This document shows positions 18,606 through 42,935 of a DNA stretch of 64,000 bases, one piece after another. The stretch is from assembly GCA_017459425.1 (NCBI GenBank), contig JAFUCZ010000030.1, forward strand, positions 83,651 through 147,650, read 5' to 3'. Under the pieces are notes generated by a model. That model was not told where the DNA came from. It ran no database searches and saw only the letters and a program-made list of their open reading frames with translations. Made by a program: the position numbers and the translations under genes. The DNA is from Bacilli bacterium (GTDB lineage Bacteria > Bacillota_I > Bacilli_A > RF39 > UBA660). The first letter of the stretch is position 1, and each line of letters starts with the position of its first letter.

Positions 18606-19031
18606 ATGATAAATATGATGTTAGTACCAAGAAGAAATAGTTTTGATTTATTTGATGACTTTTTTGATGATGGATTTTTTCCTAAAAAACAAAGAAATTT
18701 AATGAGAACAGATATCAAAGAAAAAAAGGATGAATATGTAATTGATATTGATTTACCTGGTTTTAGTAAAGAAAATATTAATTTATCTTTAAAAAATGGA
18801 TATCTTGATGTAAGTGCTAAAGTAGAACAAAATAATGATGATGAAGAGGAATCAAAATTTGTTCGTAGAGAAAGATTTTATGGAGAATGTTCAAGAAGTT
18901 TTTATGTAGGTGATGATATTACTGAAGAAGATATTAATGCTGAATTTAAGAATGGTATCTTAAAAATTGAAATACCTAAAAAAGAAGAAGTCAAAAAATT
19001 AGATGAAACAAAACAAATTGAAATTAAGTAA
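18606..19031 (+). CDS. Hsp20/alpha-crystallin small heat-shock protein
   Basis: An alpha-crystallin domain pattern with a C-terminal I-x-I (IEI) motif. The start may be ATG 18615. Confidence 0.8.
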   Translation: MINMMLVPRRNSFDLFDDFFDDGFFPKKQRNLMRTDIKEKKDEYVIDIDLPGFSKENINLSLKNGYLDVSAKVEQNNDDEEESKFVRRERFYGECSRSFYVGDDITEEDINAEFKNGILKIEIPKKEEVKKLDETKQIEIK

Positions 19032-26951: not shown

Positions 26952-27036
26952 TTTATCTACTTTTTTTGTCATTATAATAAATAATATTTATCGATAAAAA
27001 TGCTGAATAAGATGACAATAAATTGATACAAAAAAG

Positions 27037-27065
27037 GTTCGTAGAACTATATCACTTCTACGAAC
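27037..27065. repeat. lox-like site 1A: GTTCGTAGAA-CTATATCAC-TTCTACGAAC flanked by A5/T5
   Basis: Perfect 10-bp inverted arms flank a 9-bp asymmetric centre. The site also has bidirectional terminator geometry. Confidence 0.8.
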
Positions 27066-27224
27066 TTTTTAATTTGTTTATGATAAGTCTATTATATTAT
27101 ATATTGCCCTTATTTTCAATATTTTGGTAATGTTTTTTTTAAAAACTATTGACATATTTTGGTAATGTTTTTTTTAAAAACTTGTTCAGTAATTTACAAT
27201 ATTATGTCGGAAGGAGGGAGATTT

Positions 27225-28157
27225 ATGATTTTTAAAAGGATAACATTTAAATATGTTATGTATGAATGGTTAGAAGGTAGAAAGGGTAACATCAAGGAAT
27301 CAAGTTTCAACAAGTATATGTTCTGTATTGAAAAATATCTAGATCCGTATTTAGGAGAGTATGAATTTAAAAAGATAAAGGAGAAGAATATTTTCAATTT
27401 CTATGAAGAAGATGAAATAAATAAACTTAGTAATTCAACTAAGAATATATTATTGATAATTATTCAATCATGTATTAGTTATGGTGTTGAAAAAAAGTAT
27501 CGAAGAAACTCATTAGAATTGGATATTAAATTTCAAAAGAAAAGGAATGAAATTACTTACTTTACTCAAAAAGAACAAAATATAATCGAAGAACACATTA
27601 ATAAAAATATGAATATAAGAAATTTAACTATACTTTTTTCTTTATATACAGGTGTTAGAATTGGTGAATTGTGTGCTTTAAAAGGTACTGATATTGATTT
27701 TATTAATAATACTATAAGTATTGATAAAACTGTTTTGAGAGTAAAGAATCCAGAAGGTAAGCCTAAAACAAAACTAATTATTGGAAAACCAAAAACGAAA
27801 ACATCAATAAGGATTATACCAGCACCAGCATTTATAATAAATCATTTAAAGAAGTATATTAAAGATAAAAATGATTTTATTTTTACTGGTAATGATAAAC
27901 CAAAAGATCCGAGAACATTAGAAAAATATTTTTCTGAATTATTGGATAGATTAAACATTAAACAAATTAATTTTCATTCTTTAAGACATACTTTTGCGAC
28001 TAGGTTAAGAGAACAAAAAGTAGATATTAAAGTTATAAGTGAATTGCTGGGACATTCCTCTTGGAAATTTACACAAGACATATATGTTCATGCTTCATTT
28101 GAGTCAAAAAAGAACTCAATAAATATACTTGGTAAGTCAAGAAAGAAAAGTTCGTAG
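27225..28157 (+). CDS. tyrosine site-specific recombinase (phage-integrase family)
   Basis: The C-terminal HSLRHTFATRL...LGHSS...DIYVH carries the catalytic R/H/Y. The RBS GGAGGGAG is present. The stop codon lies inside site 1B. Confidence 0.8.
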   Translation: MIFKRITFKYVMYEWLEGRKGNIKESSFNKYMFCIEKYLDPYLGEYEFKKIKEKNIFNFYEEDEINKLSNSTKNILLIIIQSCISYGVEKKYRRNSLELDIKFQKKRNEITYFTQKEQNIIEEHINKNMNIRNLTILFSLYTGVRIGELCALKGTDIDFINNTISIDKTVLRVKNPEGKPKTKLIIGKPKTKTSIRIIPAPAFIINHLKKYIKDKNDFIFTGNDKPKDPRTLEKYFSELLDRLNIKQINFHSLRHTFATRLREQKVDIKVISELLGHSSWKFTQDIYVHASFESKKNSINILGKSRKKSS

Positions 28158-28178
28158 AAGTGATATAGTTCTACGAAC
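28150..28178. repeat. lox-like site 1B: GTTCGTAGAA-GTGATATAG-TTCTACGAAC (exact inverse of 1A)
   Basis: The central 9 nt is the reverse complement of the 1A centre. Confidence 0.8.
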
Positions 28179-28230
28179 CATCTCTTGATATTTAAAATAT
28201 ATTGTGTTTTTAAGAGATTTAGGAGGAAGT

Positions 28231-28317
28231 ATGACAAATCAAGAATTGATAGAACTTATTTTAAAAATGGATAAGATTAAATATGAGCTTAAAGATTTAG
28301 AATTGAGGTTGAAATAG
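28231..28317 (+). CDS. small ORF (28 aa, MTNQELIELILKMDKIKYELKDLELRLK) possibly translationally coupled to the next gene
   Basis: An RBS AGGAGGAAG is present. The stop lies 1 nt before the next ATG. Confidence 0.25.
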   Translation: MTNQELIELILKMDKIKYELKDLELRLK

Positions 28318-28318
28318 T

Positions 28319-30799
28319 ATGAAAAAAATAACAGCGGCAAATATTAAAGAGTATATCCAAGAAATTGCAGATGCAATTCAAGAATTTAATCGTCAAATTG
28401 ATGCAATTAATAATCAAGAAGAAGAATATCGTGAAACAGGTGAATTTAAAATTGTAGACCTTGCTACTCATGAACGAGGAATATCTGGTGGTATGGGGAT
28501 AAGCAATGTTAACAATTATATAGATTCATGGAAAGAATATATTGAAAATGGTGGGAAAAATGTTGAAGAGGCAAAACAGAAGATAGAATATTTAACAAAA
28601 GTTCTAGAACTTATAGAAAATGATTCAAAATATGACTTAAAAAAAGAGAAGGTAGATAAAACCTTACAACAATTTAAAGAAAAGAAAGAGAAACTTGAAG
28701 AATTAATTAGTCAGTTAAGAAAAGAAATAAAATCATGTAATACAATTCTTAAAGATATTGCATTTACAAGTATTTTAAATAATCCAGAAGCAATGGGTAA
28801 AGTTATTGATGGACTTATTGCAAACGCAAACGAAGACTTGAAACAGAAAGAAGAAAAGAAAAAACAATTACTAGAAGAATTGGAACAAAAAGAAAAAGAT
28901 GAAAAATTATTATCTGAACTTTCATGTGGTGTTAGAAGTGAATATAACTTTACACCTTTTGGTAGGTTCAATCCTAAGAGCGTGGAATCATTTAGAGAAT
29001 ATTTATCAGAAAATAATTTATATGGACAATTAGAAAGCTTTATCAAAAGATTTGCAAATGATGATACATTAGAAGTTTTAAATTATTTAAAGAATGAACC
29101 AAATGGGGCATGGGAAAAATACTACAATGCATATCCAAATGAATTTAGAACATTGGCAAAGTATACATATGTTTTGATGCAAGCAAAAGCATCTTTGAAA
29201 ATACCACAAGATTATATTGATAAAACATGTGAGAACCAAGATGTTGAATTTGATGATAAAATATATTTTGGTGATCTTAACTTCATATCAAAAAAGGATT
29301 TGATAAAATATATTAAGAATATCACAAGTGAAAGTTTAGGTAAAGATAATATAGACAACTTTAATAGATTATGTAGTTTAAGTTATAATGATTTTTGCAA
29401 ATTAGTATCGAAAATAAATTTGGATACTGTAACATATGAAGAATGTTTACTATTATTTGAAATGGTAAAACCTATGGAGAGAACTTATCTTTTAGATTCA
29501 GAAGGAGAAAATTTTAGTAAAGCATTACAAAGTTACTATAAGCAAGAAAAAAGAAAAGAATATCCACATGATACAGGTCGCATTATTATCTCAAGAGATT
29601 TAGAGAAAATAAGAGAAAGAAGACCTTACATTAAGTCAGAATTATCACGAGTAGAAGATAGTATAGTTCAATCTCAATCATATATAAAATCATTAGAAAC
29701 TGGGGATAAAAAACATTTAATTGAATTGAATTTAAATGGATTTCAAATTAGAGAAGGTGTAATTCCAGTACCTGACAGTGTGGATTGGGCAATAGTTGGA
29801 ATAAATGGTGTTCATAATCGTATAGGTGTAAATCAAGAAGAATTTGATTCTATTAATAGTAAAATTAACGACTTCGAAAACTCTGAATATGGAAAATTAT
29901 TTGTTAAATATGTAAACGAGAATGGAGTCGACTTTGAAGAACCTTATGCACAATTATCAAAAATCGTAATAACATTTAATTCCAATATAAAACATGCTGA
30001 AGGTTTACTACGTTATGAAGAACGAACTGAAAAAGAAAAGTTTGAAAGTCAGATAAAAGAATTAGAAATAGAACTTGAAGAATTAAAAAATAGTGCAGAA
30101 GATAGAAAATTCACAAAGAAAAATGGCGAACTCGTTAAAGGAAAAGTTGGTAGATTTTTATTTAAAATCTTTAACAGAAAACAATACAAGAATAATATTG
30201 AACAAATAACAAATTCTGAAAAGAAAATCAACGAAGAAAAAGAAAGAATAATCGCTGAATCTCAAAGTCCAAGTAGTGTTGTTACTGCAAAGAAAGAACT
30301 TGAAAGATTGATACATGAAAGAGAAAATGCTATAACAAAAATTCTTAATTGCGATTTAGCTACTGCTGAAAAAATAGTTGAAGAACTTGAAAGTATTTCT
30401 CCTTATTCATTAACAGAATTCATGAGTGGTGATACACCTTTACAGAATAGTGAGAATGCTGAAAAAAATAGAGAATATCTTAATCTGTTGCAACGTAGGA
30501 AACAAATGAGTAGTGAAATTAATAGAGATAAATTAAATTACTTTGATTTAATAAAGAAATTGCTGAATGATTCAACACTACCTATTCATATTAGAAAAGA
30601 ATTAGAATTAATTATTTCTAGTGATGAAGTTCGTAGTATTGATGTTTCAAGGGAATCTGTAGCTTATGCCAGAGAATTAGAAAAACATTCATATGATCCA
30701 ACTCTAACGGATTCTATAAGAACAGGAATTATTGATCCAACTATGGATAGTGATGAAGCTGTAACAATATTGAACGAAACACAAGGAAAATCAAAATAA
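28319..30799 (+). CDS. large (826 aa) coiled-coil rich protein, function unknown
   Basis: Long K/E-rich heptad regions. No enzymatic motif recognised. Confidence 0.4.
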   Translation: MKKITAANIKEYIQEIADAIQEFNRQIDAINNQEEEYRETGEFKIVDLATHERGISGGMGISNVNNYIDSWKEYIENGGKNVEEAKQKIEYLTKVLELIENDSKYDLKKEKVDKTLQQFKEKKEKLEELISQLRKEIKSCNTILKDIAFTSILNNPEAMGKVIDGLIANANEDLKQKEEKKKQLLEELEQKEKDEKLLSELSCGVRSEYNFTPFGRFNPKSVESFREYLSENNLYGQLESFIKRFANDDTLEVLNYLKNEPNGAWEKYYNAYPNEFRTLAKYTYVLMQAKASLKIPQDYIDKTCENQDVEFDDKIYFGDLNFISKKDLIKYIKNITSESLGKDNIDNFNRLCSLSYNDFCKLVSKINLDTVTYEECLLLFEMVKPMERTYLLDSEGENFSKALQSYYKQEKRKEYPHDTGRIIISRDLEKIRERRPYIKSELSRVEDSIVQSQSYIKSLETGDKKHLIELNLNGFQIREGVIPVPDSVDWAIVGINGVHNRIGVNQEEFDSINSKINDFENSEYGKLFVKYVNENGVDFEEPYAQLSKIVITFNSNIKHAEGLLRYEERTEKEKFESQIKELEIELEELKNSAEDRKFTKKNGELVKGKVGRFLFKIFNRKQYKNNIEQITNSEKKINEEKERIIAESQSPSSVVTAKKELERLIHERENAITKILNCDLATAEKIVEELESISPYSLTEFMSGDTPLQNSENAEKNREYLNLLQRRKQMSSEINRDKLNYFDLIKKLLNDSTLPIHIRKELELIISSDEVRSIDVSRESVAYARELEKHSYDPTLTDSIRTGIIDPTMDSDEAVTILNETQGKSK

Positions 30800-30822
30800 A
30801 TAATGATATTTAACAAAAAAAG

Positions 30823-30851
30823 GTTCGTAGAACTAACATAGTTCCACGAAC
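30823..30851. repeat. lox-like site 2A: GTTCGTAGAA-CTAACATAG-TTCCACGAAC + T7
   Basis: Same architecture. A-tract and T-tract flanks. Confidence 0.8.
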
Positions 30852-31018
30852 TTTTTTTCATGTCTAAATTGTACTATAAAATAAAGAAATATGCAATATT
30901 ATGGCAGTCTTTTTGTATATGCAATTGTAAACTTTTACATAATTTTTTCAAATTGTATTTTTTTATTATATTTAATTGGTTTATAATAAGAAAAATTGTA
31001 TAATTAAAAAAATAATAG
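30852..31018. promoter_or_regulatory. invertible-module candidate 2 (167 bp, non-coding, homologous to modules 3-5)
   Basis: Bounded by inverse sites 2A and 2B. Shares the ...TAAATTGTACTATAA...TATGCAATAT...TTGTAAACTTTTACAT... blocks. Confidence 0.55.
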
Positions 31019-31047
31019 GTTCGTGGAACTATGTTAGTTCTACGAAT
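31019..31047. repeat. lox-like site 2B: GTTCGTGGAA-CTATGTTAG-TTCTACGAAT (inverse of 2A including the arm variant)
   Basis: The centre is the reverse complement of 2A. The T-to-C arm variant is mirrored. Confidence 0.8.
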
Positions 31048-31088
31048 ATACTTGAAAGATTACTTCAACAATATTGTAGGAGGTATAT

Positions 31089-31541
31089 ATGGGATTGTTT
31101 GATATGCTTAATAAAAATGATATAAAAAAAAAATATTTATCGATTGGTGATAAAAGACTTGATGAAGAAGATATGCTAGAAAGAAAAGATTTATATGAAA
31201 TATTTAAGAAATATCAAGGATATGAAAAGACAATTGATTTATCAGATAACAAAGAAGTAAATAAAAAGATTTTAAGTTTGATGTCAGAACTATTCAATTT
31301 AAAAATTGTTTGCAAAAATTATAATGAATATGAAGATTTATATAATAATTTTAATGAAATAACAATTAATAAAATTAATACTTTAAATATCCTTGAATGT
31401 ATGGCTTTAATAACTTATATTCAAAGACAAGATTATTGGTCTGGTGGATATTCTTCGCCATATTTAAATAATACTAAAAATGGATTTATTCCACAAATAA
31501 TAAATAGAATAATTAGTTTATATGAAAGTAGAGGAAAATAG
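31089..31541 (+). CDS. MGLFDM-N-terminus family small protein
   Basis: Starts with MGLFDMLNK. RBS AGGAGG. Confidence 0.45.
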   Translation: MGLFDMLNKNDIKKKYLSIGDKRLDEEDMLERKDLYEIFKKYQGYEKTIDLSDNKEVNKKILSLMSELFNLKIVCKNYNEYEDLYNNFNEITINKINTLNILECMALITYIQRQDYWSGGYSSPYLNNTKNGFIPQIINRIISLYESRGK

Positions 31542-31543
31542 TT

Positions 31544-32332
31544 ATGAATAAAGATAAAGATAGTGTTATAAAATCAGGCAAAGTTCTTTTTACAATGGGT
31601 ATAATTTTTTCTGTATTATTATTTTTATTACTAATAGTAGCAATTAATGATTCGATTGGAGCAGTAATTTTAGTTATATTATTATATGTTATCATATCAC
31701 CATTATTAATTCTGGGAGTATGTATGAAAAAAAATCCTGAAAAATATATAAAAACATCTATTTCGTATATCTATGGTGCTGATAGTACAATATATTTAAA
31801 TAAAGGATATACTTATGATATTGCTTGCAATTTATATTGTAAAAGAACAGGTAAAACAAATGAAGAATTAACTGAGTCTGATGAAGATGAAATATGGCAT
31901 TGTTCGTATGATGATTTTACTTATTTAATGGCTTGGATTATTGAAAATGGTTATTATCAATATTCTTCTCAACACTATGGTGAGGATGGAGAAAAAGGTT
32001 GGATGAAAACTATTGATAAAATTAAGAATAGAACTTATGAGGCTACTGATTTCTTTCTTTTAACAGATGGAGTTTTATTCAAGGATGAAATATCAGATCA
32101 AATTGTTGATTTTATACAGGAATATTCAAATAGTTCACTATGTAATGATGGGCAATTTTATCTTAAAGAGGAAAATGTAATAGGTGGTTTGGAAGTAGAT
32201 GTACAAGACTTTGCACGAAAACAACTTAATTCTGATATTTATGGCTTTAAATTCAAATGGGATGATTATGATAAATTCAAAGTTTATATAGATACTGCGT
32301 ATAAGAAATATTTAGATAAGGTAGGAAAATAG
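31544..32332 (+). CDS. membrane-anchored hypothetical protein
   Basis: An N-terminal TM helix pair. Confidence 0.4.
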   Translation: MNKDKDSVIKSGKVLFTMGIIFSVLLFLLLIVAINDSIGAVILVILLYVIISPLLILGVCMKKNPEKYIKTSISYIYGADSTIYLNKGYTYDIACNLYCKRTGKTNEELTESDEDEIWHCSYDDFTYLMAWIIENGYYQYSSQHYGEDGEKGWMKTIDKIKNRTYEATDFFLLTDGVLFKDEISDQIVDFIQEYSNSSLCNDGQFYLKEENVIGGLEVDVQDFARKQLNSDIYGFKFKWDDYDKFKVYIDTAYKKYLDKVGK

Positions 32333-32334
32333 TT

Positions 32335-32682
32335 ATGGGATTGTTTGATATGTTTAAAAGTAAAGGAATATATTCATCATTGACTAATGAACAAAAGCAA
32401 GAATTGATTAAGAACGGAGAATTAAAACCATTATATTTAATTGGATTAAGATTTGGTGGCTCTGATAAAATTGATAATATGGTTTATGCTCCATCACAAG
32501 CAGTTGAACAAAAAAATAAGATAGATGATGAATTAGAAAACTATATGAAACAAGGTAGAACTGTTAAAGGATATATGTGCATTCCTTCATATAAAGGAAA
32601 ATGTAGTATTCCATCTAAATTAAAAATACAAGCATTTATTGATGGAACAGAACAATTTGTTAGAAATATAGATATTTGGTAG
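32335..32682 (+). CDS. MGLFDM-N-terminus family small protein
   Basis: Starts with MGLFDMFKSK. Confidence 0.45.
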   Translation: MGLFDMFKSKGIYSSLTNEQKQELIKNGELKPLYLIGLRFGGSDKIDNMVYAPSQAVEQKNKIDDELENYMKQGRTVKGYMCIPSYKGKCSIPSKLKIQAFIDGTEQFVRNIDIW

Positions 32683-32691
32683 AGGTGCTTT

Positions 32692-33366
32692 ATGAAAAAA
32701 ATAGGAAAAATTATTTTTTGGATTATATGGATAGGAATACTTTTATTTTTACATATAGGAATGGCAGCAGGTTCTGAGTATAATGATTCCTCAACAAAAA
32801 CTGTTGGAATAGTTGGAATTGTTATCTGGTGGGTATTGACTATTGGAATAACTGTAATAGTTTTGAAAATTCAAGATAAAAAAGAAGAAAAAAAGAAAAT
32901 CGAATATAAAGAAAAAAATATTGAAACAATTGAGTATGAAGATGACAGATATGGAAAAGTTAGTTTTAAACACAATCTAGAGAAACATATTTTATCAGCT
33001 GATATAAAAAATGTTAATTTTGCTGGAAAAAATTTAGAGGCTAGTATTTTAAATATTGACGATAAGACTGATTTAAAAACTATCTTTGATAATTTAAAGA
33101 AATATAGTGATAATTCAAAATCAATTAAAGAAAGAATTTATCCTGAACTTGCTGGCACTTTAAAAAAAGTAGATAATTATGATAAAGATGGAAATTTATT
33201 TGAACCAAGTGAACAATTTTTAAGAGATAATTTTGAATTTAGTACAATAGTGATTCAAGATTCGAAGACTATAAGCTTGTGGGGAAGTTGGGATTCTCCT
33301 TATGAACAAGATTATTCAATTAATTACAATTCTAGCGATGATACAATTGAAGTTGAAAGTTTATAA
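32692..33366 (+). CDS. membrane protein, hypothetical
   Basis: Two N-terminal TM helices. Confidence 0.4.
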   Translation: MKKIGKIIFWIIWIGILLFLHIGMAAGSEYNDSSTKTVGIVGIVIWWVLTIGITVIVLKIQDKKEEKKKIEYKEKNIETIEYEDDRYGKVSFKHNLEKHILSADIKNVNFAGKNLEASILNIDDKTDLKTIFDNLKKYSDNSKSIKERIYPELAGTLKKVDNYDKDGNLFEPSEQFLRDNFEFSTIVIQDSKTISLWGSWDSPYEQDYSINYNSSDDTIEVESL

Positions 33367-33384
33367 TGTGAATGAGGTTAAAAA

Positions 33385-33840
33385 ATGGGATTATTTGATA
33401 TGTTTAAGAAAAATAAAACAAATAATAATATAAAGCCACAAATTTATATATCACAAGTTGAATATGATGGTATACCAATTGAAATAGAGTTTAACATAGA
33501 TGAGAGTAAAGAACATCTATCAGAAGATTATGCCGTATTACAAAACGAAGGTATAGATAAAATAATAAAAGACCGTTTTATACCATGGTTTAAGACTGAT
33601 AAATTTAAAGATAGAGATGATAATTTAATTTATGAAGGTTTAAAGATTTATGATATAGTATACTGCTATGGTATGATTGATGCTCGATATTCACCTACAC
33701 AACAACAAGAAATGGCTGGGCAATTTACATTTTTCTTTGAAAGTGGAAATGAATATACATCAGATATGTTGGAATCAACAGCAATGGAAATTTATGTATT
33801 AAATGGAAAAATAGTTAAAGTAGATGGATACGAAGTTTAG
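33385..33840 (+). CDS. MGLFDM-N-terminus family small protein
   Basis: Starts with MGLFDMFKKNK. Confidence 0.45.
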   Translation: MGLFDMFKKNKTNNNIKPQIYISQVEYDGIPIEIEFNIDESKEHLSEDYAVLQNEGIDKIIKDRFIPWFKTDKFKDRDDNLIYEGLKIYDIVYCYGMIDARYSPTQQQEMAGQFTFFFESGNEYTSDMLESTAMEIYVLNGKIVKVDGYEV

Positions 33841-33848
33841 GAGGAAAT

Positions 33849-34445
33849 ATGGGATTATTTAGTATGTTTAAGAAAGAAAGTAATGAAAAACCAGATATAT
33901 CAGAAATAGCATATGATTATGATGGGTATGATATAGCATTTGAAAGTGGAAAAACAGAACCAAAATTATATTCTGAAATAAATAATATTGTTACTAATAA
34001 TAATTTTGATATTAATAATATAAGTGAGTATAAGAATTTAAATATTAATTCTGATTATGACACATTTCTAACATTTTATGATTCTTGGTTAGAAGAACTA
34101 AAAAATAATAATTATGTTATACATTTGGATAATTATACTAATATAACTGACTTTGCCAACAAAATAAATCAATTATTAGATAGAATAAATTCCAAAAAAA
34201 AGATAGATGTTGATTTAATTACAAATGAATATAAGGAAGAATTGAAAAAATATTCTTTTATGGGTAATGATATAGAAGAAAATTTTAATTACGATGTACT
34301 TGAGGCAAATATAGTAGCACAGGAATTAAGAAAAATTGGATACGAGTTAATAAATTTCTTTATTGGATATGATAATAATGATAAAACTATTATTAAAATT
34401 GATGATATAGAAAAACTAAAAGAAATAGAAACTAAGATTAAATAA
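33849..34445 (+). CDS. MGLF(S)M-N-terminus family protein
   Basis: Starts with MGLFSMFKKE. Confidence 0.45.
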   Translation: MGLFSMFKKESNEKPDISEIAYDYDGYDIAFESGKTEPKLYSEINNIVTNNNFDINNISEYKNLNINSDYDTFLTFYDSWLEELKNNNYVIHLDNYTNITDFANKINQLLDRINSKKKIDVDLITNEYKEELKKYSFMGNDIEENFNYDVLEANIVAQELRKIGYELINFFIGYDNNDKTIIKIDDIEKLKEIETKIK

Positions 34446-34461
34446 TGGAGGAGTTGTTAAT

Positions 34462-34905
34462 ATGACAAATAAAACTAATTTAGGATTAATTATTGAAAAT
34501 TTAGATTTAGATGCTAATTTACAAGAATTTATAGAAAATGTAGTTGAGGAGAATTTTAGAGAATTAGATCAACCACTTTATGATGAACAAGGAAATTTTA
34601 TATATAATAAAGCACTTGTAGAATTCTTAAAGTCTGATGAAAAAATCAAATCATTATCTAATGATGAATTTAAATTAGTACTTGATATGTTGGTAAAAGA
34701 TATACTTCATAGAATAGAAGCGAAGGGAAATTCTCATATAAGAGCTACTGAAGGTGCTTATGATGAAGAAAATAGAAGTTATTATGGTAGTTCTGAAAGT
34801 GCATATTGGCATTTATTAGAACAATATTTAGACGATTTTAATTATAATAAAAGTATTTCAGATTTCTATGCTGAATATTTAGAAGAAAATGAAAAAAAGA
34901 AGTAA
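34462..34905 (+). CDS. hypothetical acidic protein
   Basis: An ORF with an RBS GGAGGAG. Confidence 0.35.
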   Translation: MTNKTNLGLIIENLDLDANLQEFIENVVEENFRELDQPLYDEQGNFIYNKALVEFLKSDEKIKSLSNDEFKLVLDMLVKDILHRIEAKGNSHIRATEGAYDEENRSYYGSSESAYWHLLEQYLDDFNYNKSISDFYAEYLEENEKKK

Positions 34906-34928
34906 AAGAATAAAGGTGGAGATTATAG

Positions 34929-35645
34929 ATGTTAAACTATAAAAAAATAATATGTAGTATAGCTATATGCTTTATGTGTTTTATTGGTATGAACTCAGTA
35001 ATGGCAGCCGAAGTGACTACTGAGAAACTTGCTGAAATTTTAAGAGAAAGTGATTTGTTGGATGCATTATATTTTGAAGATTCAAAAATTACATTTGAAA
35101 CAACGGACACTACACTTAAAATACATGAAATAAATGGATTTTATGATGATGAAATTGATGATGTTGAAACTGATACGATTTATACATTGATTGATAATAT
35201 CTTAACTTATGAATATCTTGATATGGAAAATCCATCATACGCACAAATTGTTCCTGATGAATTATGGACAGATGAGGTAATAAAAGCAATTTATACTCTA
35301 AAAGGGCATGAAAATGAAACAATAAATTATGAAAATCCAGAATTTATACTTTATGAGAAATTTGAAACTGCTGGGCAACCGCAAGGAACAAAAAGATTAA
35401 AAATAGATTTGAGTAAAATTGAAGACTTAAATCCAGAAACCACATCTGTTGATGATGATAATCAATCTTCTAATGTAGTTGAATCAACAGAAAATAGTGT
35501 TTCGAATAATGTTGATAACAAGAAAACATCTAGTACAACAGAAAATCCTAAAACAGGGGTTTATGGTGGAAGTATATTATTAGTTGTAAGTGCAATTGTA
35601 GGCTATATAGTTATCAGAAGGAAAAATAAATTCAAAAATATATAA
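34929..35645 (+). CDS. secreted cell-wall-anchored protein (signal peptide; C-terminal NPKTG sorting motif + TM + basic tail)
   Basis: An N-terminal signal, then ...TENPKTGVYGGSILLVVSAIVGYIVIRRKNK. Confidence 0.5.
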   Translation: MLNYKKIICSIAICFMCFIGMNSVMAAEVTTEKLAEILRESDLLDALYFEDSKITFETTDTTLKIHEINGFYDDEIDDVETDTIYTLIDNILTYEYLDMENPSYAQIVPDELWTDEVIKAIYTLKGHENETINYENPEFILYEKFETAGQPQGTKRLKIDLSKIEDLNPETTSVDDDNQSSNVVESTENSVSNNVDNKKTSSTTENPKTGVYGGSILLVVSAIVGYIVIRRKNKFKNI

Positions 35646-35653
35646 TAAAAAAA

Positions 35654-35682
35654 GTTCGTAGAAGTACCATACTTCCACGAAC
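35654..35682. repeat. lox-like site 3A: GTTCGTAGAA-GTACCATAC-TTCCACGAAC + T5
   Basis: Same architecture. Confidence 0.8.
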
Positions 35683-35872
35683 TTTTTACTTACACCTAAA
35701 TTATATTATAATTCGTGGATTTATGCAATATAATAATAGTTTTTTGATATATAATAATGTCAAATTTTACATTTTTTTAGAAAAAATTATTGTTTTTATA
35801 TATAAACTTTATAAATTGTCATAATACTGGATTTTATAAGTATTAACACCAATTTAATTGTAGAAAATAAAG
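35683..35872. promoter_or_regulatory. invertible-module candidate 3 (190 bp)
   Basis: Contains TAAATTATATTATAA, TATGCAATAT and the palindromic ATGTCAAATTTTACAT. Confidence 0.55.
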
Positions 35873-35901
35873 GTTCGTAGAAGTATGGTACTTCTACGAA
35901 C
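35873..35901. repeat. lox-like site 3B: GTTCGTAGAA-GTATGGTAC-TTCTACGAAC (inverse of 3A)
   Basis: The centre is the reverse complement of 3A. Confidence 0.8.
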
Positions 35902-35947
35902 AATAGATAATATTATAAGTTATCGGTATTGTATGAGGAGGAAATTT

Positions 35948-36244
35948 ATGAACAATAATCAAGATTATCAAACAACACAAATGTCAAATTTAGGTGTTAA
36001 TGCTTCTGGTAACCCATTACAAATGAGAGGTTTAATGAATGTTTTAAATTCTAGTTATCACGAAGGTATAACACTAGAAGAACTACAAGTAGCAGTTGGA
36101 ACAGCAATTCAGCAACAATTACAACAATCACTACAAGGTATGGATCAAGCATCAGCACAAACAGTTATGTCATTTTTACAAGGAGTAGATTATACTTTAA
36201 CACAAGATTATAATAAGACTGTTCGTTCAGATAGAACATTATAA
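35948..36244 (+). CDS. hypothetical Q-rich small protein
   Basis: ATG after the RBS GAGGAGG. The upstream track extension runs through site 3B and is unlikely. Confidence 0.4.
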   Translation: MNNNQDYQTTQMSNLGVNASGNPLQMRGLMNVLNSSYHEGITLEELQVAVGTAIQQQLQQSLQGMDQASAQTVMSFLQGVDYTLTQDYNKTVRSDRTL

Positions 36245-36260
36245 GAATTAGGAGTTATTT

Positions 36261-36626
36261 ATGATTTACAATATTTATTATAATACTTTAAATAAAGAAT
36301 TAAAGAAGGCAATTTATTCAAAATCAATTTCGATTGAAGATTTAAAAAAAGTGTATGAAAACTTAAAAATAAAAAATAACAAAAAAAGGAAAACTATTAA
36401 TTTAGTTATGATAATAGTAATTGTTATATTTGGTATTTTGGGTATTCCTACATTTATAAATTCAAACAATCCTGAATTTACTAAATTTATGTTATTATTA
36501 TTAATACCTTTAATCGTAGTTATTTATGGAATTGTTTATTTTACACAAGTAGGATTAATAAAAATCCAATTTAATAATGCAATAAAGAAGAATTATCCTG
36601 AATTAGTGAATGAATTAAAATTGTAA
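36261..36626 (+). CDS. small membrane protein
   Basis: Two TM helices. Confidence 0.4.
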   Translation: MIYNIYYNTLNKELKKAIYSKSISIEDLKKVYENLKIKNNKKRKTINLVMIIVIVIFGILGIPTFINSNNPEFTKFMLLLLIPLIVVIYGIVYFTQVGLIKIQFNNAIKKNYPELVNELKL

Positions 36627-36639
36627 ATAGGAGGTTTAT

Positions 36640-36942
36640 ATGGGAAATAATGAAAAATTAGACCAAATGGTGCATGATGAAATGTATAAGAATTTGAATA
36701 GAACAGAAGAATTACTTAGTCACTTATATGAAATGATAAAAAATGATCCAGAAAATAAAGAATTAACTAGAATTTTTGAAGGAGTTCTTTATATTGCACA
36801 AGGTCAAGTAAGAACTAATGCAATTGTTAGTGAAACATATTTTGGTAAGGGAATTAAGGAATATTCAATGAAGATTGCAAAAAAAAGAGAAGAAAACTTG
36901 AAAAGTTTATCTGAACATGCCAAAAAAGGAAGAACAAAGTAA
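36640..36942 (+). CDS. hypothetical protein
   Basis: RBS AGGAGG. Confidence 0.35.
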   Translation: MGNNEKLDQMVHDEMYKNLNRTEELLSHLYEMIKNDPENKELTRIFEGVLYIAQGQVRTNAIVSETYFGKGIKEYSMKIAKKREENLKSLSEHAKKGRTK

Positions 36943-36957
36943 GTTGGAGGAAATAAT

Positions 36958-37506
36958 ATGCAAGAAGAATTAAAAATGTTAGAACAAAAAAAGACAGAGG
37001 CTTTAAGTAAGTCATTGACACTTCATTCACAAGCAAGTGATAAAGAAGCTAAGATGGAAAATTTTATTCAGAAATGGTTAAATGATGAATCAGAATTAAA
37101 TAATGAAAGTATGCAACAATTACTTGATTCTGTTAATGAACAAGTTGCTGAATTAAAAAGACAAGCAGAAGAGTCATGGAAAGAATATAAAAAATTAGAT
37201 AGTGAAATATCATTAAAACAAAATGCAGTTTATAGTGTAAGAACAAATTTAGGAATGAGTCCTGATGAAATTGTTATAACAGGAGGAGTACTATCTTCTA
37301 ATGCAAGTGAATCACATTTAATTGGAAGAAGTAAAACACCAGAAGAATTAGAAATAGATAGGTTAAATGCTCTTGCAATGATTAGAGAAAAAGTTGCTAA
37401 AAAAGAAATTACATTAGCTCATGCATCTAAGTTAAAAAATGATGTTAATATTGCTTATGGATATGCACCACAACAACAAGAAAATCAAAATGGTATGTCT
37501 AAATAA
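36958..37506 (+). CDS. coiled-coil hypothetical protein
   Basis: RBS GGAGG. Heptad-rich. Confidence 0.35.
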   Translation: MQEELKMLEQKKTEALSKSLTLHSQASDKEAKMENFIQKWLNDESELNNESMQQLLDSVNEQVAELKRQAEESWKEYKKLDSEISLKQNAVYSVRTNLGMSPDEIVITGGVLSSNASESHLIGRSKTPEELEIDRLNALAMIREKVAKKEITLAHASKLKNDVNIAYGYAPQQQENQNGMSK

Positions 37507-37620
37507 ATTATGGATAGTAAAAAAATACTATCTTTTTAATTTCTTTATCAAAAATTAAAAAAATATAGTATAATAAGTAAGTAAATTAGTGTTTTTTAAT
37601 TTTTGAGGGAGAAAAGTGTT

Positions 37621-38538
37621 ATGAGAAAAATTATAACAAGTTATATTAATCCTGATATGGATGGTATAGCTTTAATGTATGCTTATTGTGAGTATTTAAG
37701 AAAAAAAGGTGAAGATGCCTATTATTATTTTGAAGGAACATACAAAAAAGAAGTTGGAATTGTTTTGGATACATTTAATATATCATTAAATCCAATAGAT
37801 AAAGTATTAGATGATGATAAGATAATTTTAGTTGATACAAATTATATTCAAGAAATTCCTAATACAATAACTGAGAATAAGATTGTAGAAGTAATAGATC
37901 ATCACAAAAGAGAACAATGGATAGATGAATATAATGTAAAAGCACAAATTGAGCCTCTCGGTTCAGCTTCAACAATAGTTGCTGAAAGATTTAAAAATAG
38001 TAATTTAGAGATTTCAAAAGAATCAGCAATTTTATTGTATTATGGTATTATATCAAATACAATGAACTTAAAAATCAAATTAACAAATCAAAGAGATATT
38101 GATATGGCAAATTGGTTAAAAAGTTTAGTACCCGAAATCACAGACAGTATTACTAATGAGATTTTTGTAAAAAAATCTGAAATTGGTAACAATTTAAGGG
38201 AAGAAATGGAAGTAGAATTTAAAGATCAATTTATGACTATATCATGGTCTATGGGACAATTAGAAGTTGCAAATGTTGAAGACTTTTTAGAAAAATATGA
38301 AGATAGTATTAGAAATGTACTAGAAACTGTTAGTAAAGAAAAAGAAGTTGAATATATGTCTGTTAATTGTATGGATATAATTAATGGTTATAGTATTATT
38401 GTCGCATTAAATGATAAAACAGCAAATTTAATTTCAAAATCAATTGGAGTGAACTTTATTGAATTGAAAGCAAAGATTAATGAACTTATAAGTAGAAAAG
38501 AAATTGTGAAAGTAATCAGAAATATATATAGTAAATAA
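37621..38538 (+). CDS. DHH-family phosphoesterase (family II inorganic pyrophosphatase-like)
   Basis: An N-terminal NPDMDG motif, a DHH motif VIDHHK and a GSASTIV motif are present. Confidence 0.6.
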   Translation: MRKIITSYINPDMDGIALMYAYCEYLRKKGEDAYYYFEGTYKKEVGIVLDTFNISLNPIDKVLDDDKIILVDTNYIQEIPNTITENKIVEVIDHHKREQWIDEYNVKAQIEPLGSASTIVAERFKNSNLEISKESAILLYYGIISNTMNLKIKLTNQRDIDMANWLKSLVPEITDSITNEIFVKKSEIGNNLREEMEVEFKDQFMTISWSMGQLEVANVEDFLEKYEDSIRNVLETVSKEKEVEYMSVNCMDIINGYSIIVALNDKTANLISKSIGVNFIELKAKINELISRKEIVKVIRNIYSK

Positions 38539-38558
38539 TTATGATTTAGGAGGTTTTT

Positions 38559-39119
38559 ATGATATATATAACAAGACACGGACAAACAAATTGGAATGTA
38601 CAAAAGAAAGTAATGGGTAGATGTGATGAACCATTAAACGAAACGGGATTAAGTCAAGCAGAAGAAACAAGAAATAACTTAATGAATACAGATATTGATT
38701 TGATTATTTGTTCACCATTAAAAAGAGCAAGACAAACAGCAGAGATAATTAATAGAGATAGAAATATTCCTATAATATATGATGAAAGAATTATCGAAAG
38801 AGATTTCGGTGAATTTGAAGGAATGGAAACAAAGAATTTTGATTTCCATGGTTATTGGAATTATTATAAGAATATGCAATTTGAGAGTGCTGAAAATATT
38901 CAAGTATTCTTTAAAAGAGTATATGATTTTTTAGAAGATATTACTGAAAAATATAAAGATAAAAATGTATTATTGGTTGCGCATGGTGGAATTAGTATCC
39001 CAGTAGCATGTTTCTTTAATGGAAATATACCAGAAGAATCACTCGTTGATGCAGGATTAGTTTTAGGTAATTGTCAAGTTGCATCATATACAGTGAATAA
39101 TAAAAAAATAAACAAGTAA
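38559..39119 (+). CDS. histidine phosphatase (phosphoglycerate-mutase-like) family protein
   Basis: An N-terminal RHGQTNWN catalytic motif is present. AHGG lies near the C-terminus. Confidence 0.7.
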   Translation: MIYITRHGQTNWNVQKKVMGRCDEPLNETGLSQAEETRNNLMNTDIDLIICSPLKRARQTAEIINRDRNIPIIYDERIIERDFGEFEGMETKNFDFHGYWNYYKNMQFESAENIQVFFKRVYDFLEDITEKYKDKNVLLVAHGGISIPVACFFNGNIPEESLVDAGLVLGNCQVASYTVNNKKINK

Positions 39120-39132
39120 TTACATAAAAAAG

Positions 39133-39161
39133 GTTCGTAGAACTCTATAACTTCTACGAAC
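39133..39161. repeat. lox-like site 4A: GTTCGTAGAA-CTCTATAAC-TTCTACGAAC + T6
   Basis: Same architecture. Confidence 0.8.
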
Positions 39162-39342
39162 TTTTTTCTATGATTAAATTATACTATAAGATATTGTTTT
39201 ATGCAATATAGCAAATAATTTTTTATTAATGAGTTATGTCAAATTTTACATTTTTTAATTCTAATTTGTATATATTTTTTTTAAATCATGGAATTCTATT
39301 GTGTACCAAATGAAAAAGGAATTTATAACATTATTAAAATAG
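39162..39342. promoter_or_regulatory. invertible-module candidate 4 (181 bp)
   Basis: Contains TAAATTATACTATAA, TATGCAATAT and ATGTCAAATTTTACAT. Confidence 0.55.
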
Positions 39343-39371
39343 GTTCGTAGAAGTTATAGAGTTCTACGAAT
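39343..39371. repeat. lox-like site 4B: GTTCGTAGAA-GTTATAGAG-TTCTACGAAT (inverse of 4A)
   Basis: The centre is the reverse complement of 4A. Confidence 0.8.
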
Positions 39372-39405
39372 AATGATTAGTAAATATATTTTGTGGAGGT
39401 AAAAT

Positions 39406-40431
39406 ATGAGAAAAAAGATATTTATTATGATTTTAGGAATAGTAATGTTTATTCCAATAGCACACGCAAAAGATGTTACAAAAGAGGAATTTGTTAGTAA
39501 TTTACAAAAATATGTAGAAGAATTTAATTCAGGTTCACCTACATATGAAGAATATCCATATGGTTCTGGAATTAGAAAAAATATGAAACAAATAATACTC
39601 ACAAATAATGATGAAGGAATTAATTTAAAAAATGGTGATTATGAAACTAATGTTGTATTCAATGAAACAGAGCAAACTGTAAATGGTATAGCAATGAATA
39701 TAGATAATATTAATGATAATTCTACTGAAGTTGAAAAAAAATTATATTATGAAAATATTATGTATAAATATATTCAATTACAAATGATAGGCTTATCTAT
39801 AATTGATTCGAAAGGAATAGATAAAGAATTAGGTTTATCGTCATATGATGTTTATGGTTTAAGAACAGGGACAGATACAATACTTAAAGATCTTTCATTT
39901 AACTTTAGTATTGATTTATCTAAAGTGGAGGTAATAGATGATGATGGATATGAATATCTTGTTCCAAAACTATCAATCGAAAAATTAAGTGATACTAAAT
40001 TAAGGATTTATTTTGATTTTGAAAGATATGATGAAGAACGATTTGATTGGGATAATATACCGATTGATTTATTAATTTTTGAAGATTCATCTTCTGTTTC
40101 AACAAATAGTATTACGCAAATTGAAGATGGATATGTTGATGTAAATATATTGCCAGATAAAGAATACATGTTTAAAGGTGTTGCATATCATCCAACATTA
40201 TTAGGTTATTTGCGATTAAGTGAGCCAGTATATTATAATGTACCATCGCAACAAGATAATCAAGCGACAGATAATAATAATGATAATAATGCTACTAATA
40301 CACAAAAAACTATATCTAATACAATAGACAATCCAAAAACAGGTGTGAAAAACTATATGACAGTTGGTATATTAGCAATCTTAATATTAGGAATAACATA
40401 CAAATTATATAAGAAAAAGGAAAGTATTTAA
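39406..40431 (+). CDS. secreted cell-wall-anchored protein (signal peptide; C-terminal NPKTG motif + TM + basic tail)
   Basis: An N-terminal signal, then ...IDNPKTGVKNYMTVGILAILILGITYKLYKKKESI. Confidence 0.5.
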   Translation: MRKKIFIMILGIVMFIPIAHAKDVTKEEFVSNLQKYVEEFNSGSPTYEEYPYGSGIRKNMKQIILTNNDEGINLKNGDYETNVVFNETEQTVNGIAMNIDNINDNSTEVEKKLYYENIMYKYIQLQMIGLSIIDSKGIDKELGLSSYDVYGLRTGTDTILKDLSFNFSIDLSKVEVIDDDGYEYLVPKLSIEKLSDTKLRIYFDFERYDEERFDWDNIPIDLLIFEDSSSVSTNSITQIEDGYVDVNILPDKEYMFKGVAYHPTLLGYLRLSEPVYYNVPSQQDNQATDNNNDNNATNTQKTISNTIDNPKTGVKNYMTVGILAILILGITYKLYKKKESI

Positions 40432-40442
40432 GGAGGACGATT

Positions 40443-41099
40443 ATGGGATTATTTGATATGTTTAAGAAAAAAAAGGTAGAACAAAAATCAAATCTACCTG
40501 AGAACAAATATTATAAAGGAAATGATATTTTTAAAGATGATGAGGTAAAGGGTAATGAAATATCAATTAGAATTATAAAGAGTATTGAAATACCTGGACA
40601 TTCTAATCTTTATGAATGTACTGTCCAATATGGAATACCAAGTGCACTGATTACAGATGCTTGGGAAAATGAAGATTTACGCTTTTTTGAAAAATTAATT
40701 ATGGAGTTTGATAAAAATGAAATGATTAATAATCCTGATTATGCTAAATTTGTTTTAACAAAATTATTAAGAAGGGAAAGAGTAAGAGAATTACACGACA
40801 TTGAATTTGGTTTAATCGATGGAAAGAAAAATGGAAATTATATTGGTTCTGTTTCAAAAAATAATGGTAATTTATCTATTACAATGAATGATGAAATAGG
40901 AACAGTAATAGAAACATTACCAGCAACAAAAAAGCTTCAAGAAAATTATAAAGAATATATATCTGAAAAAGAGCAAGTACAAAGAAATATAGACGAAAGC
41001 ACATCTACAAGCAGAAAAGAAAGAATTGAATATTTAAAACAAGAACTAGCAAATCTAGAAAAAAGAGAAGAAGAATATCAGAGTTCTAAAAATAAATAA
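40443..41099 (+). CDS. MGLFDM-N-terminus family protein
   Basis: Starts with MGLFDMFKKKK. Confidence 0.45.
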   Translation: MGLFDMFKKKKVEQKSNLPENKYYKGNDIFKDDEVKGNEISIRIIKSIEIPGHSNLYECTVQYGIPSALITDAWENEDLRFFEKLIMEFDKNEMINNPDYAKFVLTKLLRRERVRELHDIEFGLIDGKKNGNYIGSVSKNNGNLSITMNDEIGTVIETLPATKKLQENYKEYISEKEQVQRNIDESTSTSRKERIEYLKQELANLEKREEEYQSSKNK

Positions 41100-41161
41100 A
41101 TGATTTATGACTATTTAATATTGAAAATTAGATAGTCTTTTTTTATTTAGTAATAAAAAAG

Positions 41162-41190
41162 GTTCGTAGAACTACAATACTTCTACGAAC
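41162..41190. repeat. lox-like site 5A: GTTCGTAGAA-CTACAATAC-TTCTACGAAC
   Basis: Same architecture. Confidence 0.8.
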
Positions 41191-41370
41191 TTTCCCCATG
41201 TATAAATTATATTATATATTTCTTAAATATGCAATATGTTAATTAAATTTTTTGCTCATGAAAATGTAAAATTTTAACATTAATTTTTTTAATTACTAAT
41301 ATGTAATATGAAAAACTGTATTTTATTATTTTGCAATAGTAAAACATATTTTAACTTAATAATAGTTAGG
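41191..41370. promoter_or_regulatory. invertible-module candidate 5 (180 bp)
   Basis: Contains TAAATTATATTATATAT, ATATGCAATAT and ATGTAAAATTTTAACAT. Confidence 0.55.
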
Positions 41371-41399
41371 GTTCGTAGAAGTATTGTAGTTCTACGAAT
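41371..41399. repeat. lox-like site 5B: GTTCGTAGAA-GTATTGTAG-TTCTACGAAT (inverse of 5A)
   Basis: The centre is the reverse complement of 5A. Confidence 0.8.
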
Positions 41400-41433
41400 A
41401 ATGATGAATAAATATGTTTTTTGGAGTGAGATT

Positions 41434-42369: not shown

Positions 42370-42370
42370 T

Positions 42371-42919: not shown

Positions 42920-42935
42920 AATTTGAATAGAGGAG

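Follow-up and report, generated by a model that had tools for sequence, protein, structure and literature searches.

A tyrosine recombinase encoded within its own invertible cassette and predicted to switch neighbouring genes in a Bacilli bacterium

In the Salmonella H-segment (hixL-hin-promoter-hixR, next to fljBA), a recombinase gene and an outward promoter lie together inside an invertible segment, the adjacent operon is driven in just one of the two orientations, and both of them allow the recombinase to be made. Here we describe a locus of related design in a 64,000-nucleotide (nt) stretch of the genome of a Bacilli bacterium (assembly GCA_017459425.1, contig JAFUCZ010000030.1; hereafter the window, in which position 1 is the first letter). 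Positions 27037-28178, termed S1, hold a tyrosine recombinase gene between two inverted sites. We consider it likely that S1 is a self-contained invertible cassette whose outward promoter, P_out, switches the neighbouring genes, and that it belongs with four further switches, S2-S5, each set apart by the spacers of its paired sites. The original prediction for this locus, made from the sequence letters, had compared it to hin inside the H-segment. That analogy holds for function (a recombinase gene together with a predicted outward promoter inside the invertible DNA) and fails for the enzyme family, as Hin is a serine invertase that works with a Fis-bound enhancer whereas the S1 enzyme is a tyrosine recombinase with lox/FRT-like sites. 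S1 also differs from the H-segment in that a stop codon lies in one of its sites, the sites appear to double as terminator stems, and the promoter is divergent from the recombinase at the same segment end. While the combination of a recombinase with an outward promoter is already known from the H-segment, we found no description in the searchable literature of the large cassette family that S1 represents, and full-text matches to the site sequence were unrelated primers.

Tyrosine recombinases invert short promoter segments between ON and OFF states at fimS (FimB/FimE), at E. coli ipuS, at Proteus mrp and, through RecV, in C. difficile. In the fim system the orientation also affects a recombinase transcript (fimE), as may be the case for S1. 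However, the recombinase genes of fimS-type systems lie outside the invertible element, whereas in S1 the gene is inside, and the 9-base-pair (bp) repeats of fimS are accompanied by accessory IHF and Lrp sites, of which none are known for S1. The Mpi regulon of Bacteroides fragilis is similar in that one recombinase serves several promoter invertons of ~200-260 bp, but Mpi is a serine recombinase encoded at a distance from its targets and the S1 enzyme is a tyrosine recombinase inside its own switch. In PMC11892184, inverton group 139 (32 of 33 invertons from Clostridia) is linked statistically to a tyrosine recombinase family (invertase group 35) and flips in read data; its examples in Clostridium sp. 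D5 (257 bp) and Intestinimonas (255 bp) are similar in size to S2-S5 (225-248 bp). According to that paper, invertons do not as a rule regulate the invertases near them, and it describes no recombinase inside a promoter inverton, no pair-specific spacers and no sites serving as terminators. Recombinases can lie inside their own invertible region (PMC5903667, PMC9881135).

A repeat search placed S1 within a perfect inverted repeat with arms of 34 nt (27036-27069 and 28146-28179, 100% complementary, 1076 nt between them). The left arm contains the core site 1A (27037-27065), a 29-bp palindromic sequence reading GTTCGTAGAA-CTATATCAC-TTCTACGAAC, in which two 10-bp arms surround an asymmetric 9-bp spacer (GTTCGTAGAA-N9-TTCTACGAAC); the right arm contains 1B (28150-28178), the exact inverse of 1A. 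The two sites are therefore exact inverse copies flanking a leader and the tyrosine recombinase gene, as originally predicted. The left arm has an A-run on its outside and a T-run on its inside and is terminator-like in both directions, while the outside of the right arm is without a T-run (CATCTCTTGA). Between the left arm and the recombinase open reading frame (ORF) is a leader of 159 bp (27066-27224), one less than the 160 bp given earlier. The ORF is listed from 27159 to 28157, and its likely start is the ATG at 27225, 7 nt past a GGAGG (27213-27217), which gives a plus-strand gene for a protein of 310 amino acids (aa) at 27225-28157 with a Pfam match and invariant catalytic residues.

The recombinase gene ends with a TAG at 28155-28157, within GTTCG-TAG-AA in the inner arm of 1B, and the claim that the stop codon is built into the site was correct. 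The overlap is kept in L084 and L087 (L-numbers are labels of the related contigs and scaffolds that were compared with the window), where the recombinases are 66-67% identical to that of S1 and also end in TCG-TAG within the arm; 45 of the 120 best homologs have the C-terminal ...S expected of TCG-TAG in the arm. Other homologs read the arm in a different frame and stop in the spacer (e.g. ...KKFVEVI), and in the P0035 lineage the stop precedes the arm by 3 nt. Because the stop codon sits in the inner arm and this arm moves together with the gene in every inversion, the ORF survives. In L002 and L003 the ortholog, again of 310 aa and with its ...SS-TAG end within the arm, is indeed intact in the opposite orientation. 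The expectation that inversion would leave the ORF intact was thus sound, although the symmetry of the arms, which had been given as its cause, is not the reason.

Two features of the leader that had drawn attention earlier proved to be linked to one another. A direct duplication exists, but instead of 26 bp at about 27118 and 27153 it is an exact 29-nt repeat at 27119-27147 and 27154-27182 with a period of 35, within a 35-bp tandem duplication on the plus strand (27119-27188). The leaders of the orthologous cassettes in L002, L003 and L099 do not have the duplication, which is therefore specific to this strain. The TTGACA noted in the leader is also present (27149-27154); it arises at the duplication junction and is followed by no usable -10 element 16-18 nt downstream. 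We rejected this TTGACA as a promoter, being the product of a strain-specific duplication without a -10 after it; the relevant promoter signal is the conserved minus-strand TTGAAA-17-TATAAT of P_out.

From comparisons of related strains and samples we conclude that the segment inverts in nature, as both orientations occur between the same flanks. L118, a 109.7-kilobase (kb) contig from a gut metagenome, has the order PrgI - VirB4-like - CHAP - S1 - 822-aa gene - S2 - block 2 - S3 - block 3 - S4, and its recombinase gene is read in the same direction as the genes downstream, which is also the arrangement of the window. When L002 was aligned to L118 with blastn, both flanks matched on the minus strand (90.0% over 4291 nt and 89.4% over 1671 nt). 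The match of the recombinase segment (84.7% over 1134 nt) was on the plus strand, so that the segment is reversed between shared flanks. L002 and L003 come from two further assemblies and have the same flanks as L118. The window compared with L002 gave the same pattern, with the recombinase segment reversed between orthologous flanks, and in L002 P_out faces the ortholog of the 826-aa gene that lies downstream of S1 in the window. These comparisons agree with the original prediction that S1 is an invertible element bounded by two inverse core sites, and that inversion exchanges the flank faced by the leader; in the flipped state this flank holds the small ORF (28231-28317, 28 aa) and the 826-aa ORF (28319-30799), both located as predicted. 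The original prediction would have been refuted by a segment present in one orientation throughout; instead, both orientations were found.

Additional examples of flipped or mixed states came from further loci. In L085, a 1303-bp scaffold with a recombinase 67% identical to that of S1, reverse-complementing the right flank reproduces the 59-nt left flank of the same scaffold, bar one mismatch and one gap, and the left flank in the sister sample L084 is unrelated to that of L085. The chimeric flanks of L085 indicate that both junction types are present in that sample. In L101 (NCBI contig of the metagenome-assembled genome GCA_965353895.1, 9780-10962; recombinase 55% identical), the leader faces an operon encoding signal peptidase, DUF5305 and Flg_new proteins and the recombinase faces away from it. 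A switch with the S5 spacer is flipped in L113, where TTGCAT-17-TATAAT stands beside the right site and is aimed into the downstream gene. Reversible switching would presumably occur within one clone as well. The repeat of L101 is degenerate (88% complementary; one arm TTCTTTGAA), and this locus may be a switch locked in the flipped state. Contigs of sample 3300010282 break at S1 and at S4', a switch of the sister strain; such breaks are compatible with mixed orientations and were not counted as evidence.

P_out, the predicted outward promoter, is a sigma70-type sequence on the minus strand at 27091-27119 (TTGAAA-17-TATAAT, 11/12 match), 26 nt from 1A; in the window orientation it is directed towards 1A and the left flank, with the recombinase gene behind it. 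When S1-S5 were aligned with L002, L084 and L087, only two sets of columns outside the sites were invariant, ATT.TA..A.A and, deeper in the segment, CAA. On the minus strand they correspond to a -10 element (TATAAT or TACAAT) and, 17 nt upstream, a -35 element (TTGCAT or TTGAAA), with the -10 located 16-26 nt from the left site. To cover more distant relatives, a promoter census was taken of 31 recombinases bracketed by inverted repeats in reference genomes (29-41% identical, GC content of the loci 27-56%). An outward promoter matching at least 10 of 12 positions was present in 28 of the 31 cassettes, five of them with a perfect TTGACA-17-TATAAT, and in cassettes with a promoter the -10 was mostly 25-37 nt from the leader-side repeat. 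The controls gave 1/31 (other strand of the same region) and 2/31 (same strand, inside the gene). Judged by this conservation, the leader signal of the cassette family is the outward promoter and not an inward one.

The recombinase sites also resemble terminator stems. The site RNA of all five switches is predicted to form hairpins of -13.6 to -19 kcal/mol, and for a transcript from P_out the 8 nt after the hairpin include 6-7 U in the left outer flank and 2-4 in the right outer flank, in five of five switches. At S1 the left outer flank after the hairpin reads CUUUUUUG and the right outer flank CAUCUCUU, with no U-tract. Because a U-tract follows the left-site hairpin, every P_out in the window orientation points into a predicted terminator. 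The left sites score as terminators on both strands, and the inner T-run beside the left site should also make it a terminator for transcription arriving from upstream.

These features lead to a model in which S1 is very probably a reversible on/off switch for its neighbouring genes. The recombinase would exchange strands within the spacers of 1A and 1B, and the whole 1.14-kb segment would flip. In the window orientation, P_out would fire leftward into 1A, where the hairpin and U-tract would terminate its transcript, and nothing downstream would be driven. After inversion P_out would adjoin the right flank, where the hairpin is without a U-tract, and transcription would continue into the 28-aa ORF and the 826-aa gene; the other junction of the flipped state would consist of the left flank, the site and the 3' end of the recombinase gene (ACAAAAAAGGTTCGTAGAACTATATCACTTCTACGAACTTTTCTTTC). 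The recombinase would be made in both states from a weak promoter of its own inside the segment, with its stop codon retained. We infer the activity of P_out and of the terminators, and the action of the recombinase on 1A/1B and on the sites of S2-S5, from sequence features.

S1 is one of five switches in the window. The window contains 22 copies of the arm 10-mer GTTCGTAGAA when at most one mismatch is allowed, where 1.8 would be expected, and none of 100 shuffles reached 22. Of these matches, 20 build ten 29-bp sites that form five inverted pairs. The sites of S1 begin at 27037 and 28150, carry the spacer CTATATCAC and its inverse, and enclose a leftward promoter and the recombinase gene. 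S2 (30823-31047, sites at 30823 and 31019) has the spacer CTAACATAG and a leftward promoter, TTGCAT (30896-30891)-17-TACAAT (30873-30868); S3 (35654-35901, sites at 35654 and 35873) has the spacer GTACCATAC and a leftward TTGCAT-17-TATAAT. The spacers of S4 (39133-39371, sites at 39133 and 39343) and S5 (41162-41399, sites at 41162 and 41371) are CTCTATAAC and CTACAATAC, respectively, and both switches again contain a leftward promoter. S2-S5 have the architecture of S1 with no recombinase gene inside, and they occupy the gaps between five co-directional gene blocks (28231-43454). In this assembly the promoters of S1-S5 all face away from the downstream gene blocks. We dropped the alternative that the present orientation is ON by way of a promoter at the right end, because only the left ~115 nt of S2-S5 are conserved; their right halves are not, and no conserved rightward promoter was found at their right ends.

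The two arm 10-mers that stand alone, each with one mismatch and no inverted partner, are at 18861-18870 (in an HSP20 gene) and 30629-30638 (near the 3' end of the 826-aa gene), and are within chance given the 1.8 expected. Past the -35 of S2-S5 there is a further conserved block, TGTmAAaTTTTAC(A), at ~30926-30940, 35758-35772, 39236-39250 and 41266-41280; on the minus strand it reads TTGACA or TTTACA and could be a second promoter, an UP-like element or a site for an accessory protein.

Within each pair the spacers are exact inverses of one another, and between pairs of the window they differ by at least 2 nt. Spacers also change together between strains: the S1 spacer is CTATATCAC in the window and CTATACCAC in L002, and the S4 spacer is CTCTATAAC in the window and CAGTATAAC in L118, with both partner sites altered in each case. 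Only a need for the two sites to match when they recombine would lead one to expect such co-variation. Inverted arms around an asymmetric, direction-setting spacer are likewise the design of Cre/loxP and FLP/FRT (lox511, lox2272), and lox sites with the same arms and different spacers do not recombine with each other (PMC1479339). While the heterospecific lox/FRT variants were engineered, the pair-specific spacers of S1-S5 are natural and co-vary between partners, although some spacers are only 1-2 nt apart. Multiple inverted sites per locus acted on by a tyrosine recombinase are also found in shufflons of the R64 type (Rci) and at Type I hsdS of S. pneumoniae (ivr/PsrA), and at some hsdS loci the recombinase gene is within the inverting segments. 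Those systems, however, shuffle coding segments through cross-reacting sites, whereas the pairing in S1-S5 appears to be exclusive and it is promoters that would be moved. The same enzyme presumably flips S2-S5, which have identical arms, the same promoter module and pair-specific spacers. As recombination by tyrosine enzymes depends on matching spacers, a site would recombine with no site but its partner, and the five blocks between 28.2 and 43.5 kb would therefore be switched independently and without deletions between switches. On this analysis the five pairs would be orthogonal by virtue of their spacers.

In the sister strain (L112-L116) there are at least seven spacer classes. Near 80 distant homologs we found no extra satellite switches, suggesting that the multi-switch array is specific to this lineage. 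Sites with the same arms and an 8-nt spacer are present at L084:7675-7702 (GTAGCATA) and L087:1554-1581 (TATGTATG), next to the recombinases of 66-67% identity, and the spacing between arms is thus not fixed within the family. The S4' switch of the sister strain is divided over two contigs, with the left site (spacer CTCTATTAC) at L116:8417-8585 and the matching right site (GTAATAGAG) at L114:1-310. The inner sequences of S4' share ~70 nt including the promoter module and diverge on both sides, which may reflect an assembly chimera, a rearrangement or strain mixing.

The original prediction had also suggested that expression of the recombinase itself may be phase-variable, and this was not supported. 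The candidate recombinase promoter, P_rec, is on the plus strand at 27173-27200 (TTTAAA-16-TACAAT, 9/12) inside the segment, as are the ribosome-binding site and a hairpin with T-run at the leader end. The latter consists of the site hairpin and an internal T-run (TTTTTAATTT). Since P_rec and this hairpin move with the segment, recombinase transcription should start alike in both orientations, and the hairpin and T-run should block read-in from either flank. P_rec and the ribosome-binding site have counterparts in L002 and L099. On this sequence evidence it would be the neighbouring gene pair, and not the recombinase, that is phase-variable, and only the 3' end of the recombinase transcript would differ between orientations. 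In the flipped state that transcript would end at the terminator of the left flank, while in the window state no terminator follows 1B; the level of the recombinase may therefore depend on the state through the fate of its mRNA.

We nevertheless considered the possibility that inversion mainly switches the recombinase's own expression, through a promoter or signal outside the repeats or through read-in from one flank. P_rec is only a 9/12 match, the assemblies are strongly biased to one orientation, which an orientation-dependent level of recombinase like that of FimE could explain, and the 3' end of the transcript does change, with no terminator after 1B and a hairpin plus U-tract past the outer flank of 1A. 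Against these points, the blocking hairpin TTTTTAATTT travels with the segment and should act on both flanks, the segments of L002 and L099 have kept the P_rec -10 (TACAAT) and the ribosome-binding site, and the signal that is strongly conserved across the family is the outward promoter and not an inward one. We regard this explanation as unlikely. A cassette that is mainly a mobile element, with the opposite orientations representing independent insertions and not inversion in place, would account for the finding of a 97% identical recombinase with identical sites next to an unrelated 567-aa gene in L099/L116, for the 825-aa ortholog without a cassette in L120-L124, and for the many genomic contexts in which the family is found. 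It is still very improbable, as the flanks of L002 and L118 are shared up to the sites with only the segment reversed, and two independent insertions in opposite directions at an identical position are unlikely. Furthermore, both ends consist of a full core site, with two arms and an asymmetric spacer, and the two are inverted, which makes a substrate for inversion and not for excision; the sites are the same in S2-S5, where they enclose a promoter and no recombinase gene; and L085 contains both junction types in one sample.

The explanation to which we give least credence, hardly any at all, is that the palindromes are simply intrinsic terminators or intergenic hairpins and that the recombinase lies between two of them by coincidence. 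The left sites do score as terminators on both strands, and all sites are between genes or at gene ends. A terminator would not explain, however, why the hairpin loop is the exact inverse of that of a neighbour 200-1100 bp away, specific to the pair and co-varying across strains, nor do the right sites have U-tracts. The segment between sites has been found inverted (the L113 switch; L002 compared with L118), and recombinases of only 29-41% identity are bracketed by related palindromes with a TTCGyAGA core.

Several observations weigh against the switch model that we prefer, or limit it. P_rec is predicted weakly. In the window orientation 1B is not followed by a terminator, and the 826-aa gene may thus receive low read-through from the recombinase gene, such that 'OFF' may be 'low'. 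The spacers of S1 and S4 differ at only 2 of 9 positions, which may be too few to bar cross-recombination. The evidence for inversion consists of consensus assemblies of related strains and one chimeric contig, and for the window strain itself S1 has the window orientation in five of five contigs (over the whole segment, identity is 100% for L094 and 99.95-99.98% for L096/L097; L095 and L098 cover the right junction only). Contigs of this strain that reach S2-S4 have those switches in the window orientation as well, and just one orientation is seen among ten contigs of the P0035 lineage. The reference-genome census, which is crude in this respect, found a gene leaving the stop-codon side only in 13 cassettes and the leader side only in 2. 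Because consensus assemblies report the majority state, we interpret the single-orientation results as a bias to the state in which P_out is silenced and not as evidence against switching. Given that the recombinase transcript would be terminated only in the flipped state, the enzyme level may depend on the state and so bias the population to the orientation that is most commonly assembled. A broader model, to which we would give somewhat less than an even chance, is that a recombinase inside its own switch runs at least five independent switches (at least seven in the sister strain), orthogonal by their spacers and with sites that are also terminator stems, while its own level depends on the state.

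The enzyme belongs to the tyrosine recombinases. It matches Pfam PF00589 (Phage_integrase) with 101.7 bits against a cut-off of 27.1 (E = 5.1e-29) and the N-terminal SAM-like domain PF14659 with 36.7 bits against 22.6, and the catalytic residues R..H-x-x-R..H..Y (R145, H251, R254, H277 and Y287) are invariant in an alignment of 30 homologs. The closest relatives in the PDB are XerA, Tn1549 Int and XerD. Assignment to a more specific class failed in each case. Scores were 23.9 and 18.9 bits for the FimB/FimE type (NCBIfam PRK09870 and PRK09871; cut-offs 221 and 222), and 102.6, 84.9 and 84.6 bits for XerA, XerD and XerC (cut-offs 220, 329.6 and 335); the Xer/dif class is also opposed by the presence of sites in inverted pairs and not a single dif site. 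An integron integrase was rejected on the integrase_gron score (51.7 bits against 265) and because the sites are close inverted pairs around promoter modules, whereas integrons have single attC sites between cassettes that lack promoters. With tyrosine-recombinase domains only and no Resolvase domain found by Pfam, the enzyme is not a serine invertase of the Hin/Gin/Cin/Pin type and is therefore not of the Hin family.

The first gene that P_out would reach after inversion is the plus-strand 28-aa ORF at 28231-28317 (MTNQELIELILKMDKIKYELKDLELRLK), which has a GGAGG ribosome-binding site and is conserved together with the large gene in L120. The predicted S1 target that follows (28319-30799, plus strand) encodes the 826-aa coiled-coil protein, for which only four homologs were found in 5.8 billion proteins. 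An LmuB-like match of this protein (E = 9e-7) looks like coiled-coil similarity and was set aside, and the controlled genes of blocks 1, 2 and 4 gave no match above curated thresholds in PADLOC, NCBIfam or Pfam. The controlled genes are restricted to this lineage and include the coiled-coil protein, small membrane proteins and a family with N-termini of the MGLFDMFKK type. Five small proteins (gene starts at 31089, 32335, 33385, 33849 and 40443) begin MGLFDMFKK, MGLFDMLNK or MGLFSMFKK and form this paralog family; their shared N-terminal motif resembles the amphipathic N-terminus of PspA/Vipp1. Several genes beside them encode transmembrane segments or signal peptides.

The cassette appears separable from the genes that it would control. 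An 825-aa ortholog of the large protein is present without any cassette in L120-L124, in regions resembling the cargo of conjugative elements, and in the sister strain (L099/L116) the 97% identical recombinase with identical sites abuts a 567-aa gene that is unrelated to the 826-aa gene. For these two reasons we consider the cassette an add-on regulatory module. The window region is chromosomal, with tRNA synthetases and ABC transporters and without type IV secretion system (T4SS) genes. At L118:3939-9203 and L002:1783-6906 the array follows conjugation genes for PrgI, a VirB4-like ATPase and a CHAP hydrolase. The genes that precede it in the window are an exonuclease and a GNAT gene, and the vicinity is free of T4SS genes. 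This difference in upstream context indicates that the array has moved or that a conjugative element has decayed. Elsewhere the neighbours of the cassette encode prepilin-like or leucine-rich repeat proteins (L084) or SpaA/Cna_B pilins (L102). In L087 (2734-6129) it is directly upstream of a 498-aa N_methyl/DUF6273 gene, which is followed by bAvd, a reverse transcriptase (RVT_1) and polysaccharide genes; judging from this gene order, the target of a diversity-generating retroelement may be under an invertible promoter there.

A protein search returned 2841 homologs of the recombinase. Many of the best 120 of these are on contigs of ~1.1-1.2 kb, a size that is explained by the expectation that an assembly graph with k=31 breaks at repeats of at least 31 nt. 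Homologs of 55-67% identity are bracketed by perfect inverted repeats of 30-35 nt. Among the matches listed there were 80 homologs from reference genomes, all 29-41% identical and hence uninformative for the close lineage; 40 of these 80 are bracketed by perfect repeats of 14-49 nt, mostly with the core TTCGyAGA...TCTrCGAA. The site pattern was not found in viral contigs, and the cassette is not obviously phage-borne. From these homologs S1 appears to be a member of a large cassette family that is widespread in gut and rumen Firmicutes.

Standard tools for finding invertons generally accept only repeats that are well under 1 kb apart, and cassettes of 1.1-1.4 kb may be systematically missed. 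In S1, as we interpret it, 1.14 kb would hold a whole phase-variation device, comprising the enzyme, its sites, a promoter and the terminator logic. Four to six additional switches with pair-specific spacers accompany the same enzyme in this lineage, an array that would parallel in nature the heterospecific lox/FRT sites made by engineering. It offers a testable model for how one recombinase may set many independent ON/OFF bits without deleting the intervening DNA, and the arms, spacers, promoter and terminator flank could serve as ready parts for recombinase memory circuits in Firmicutes.

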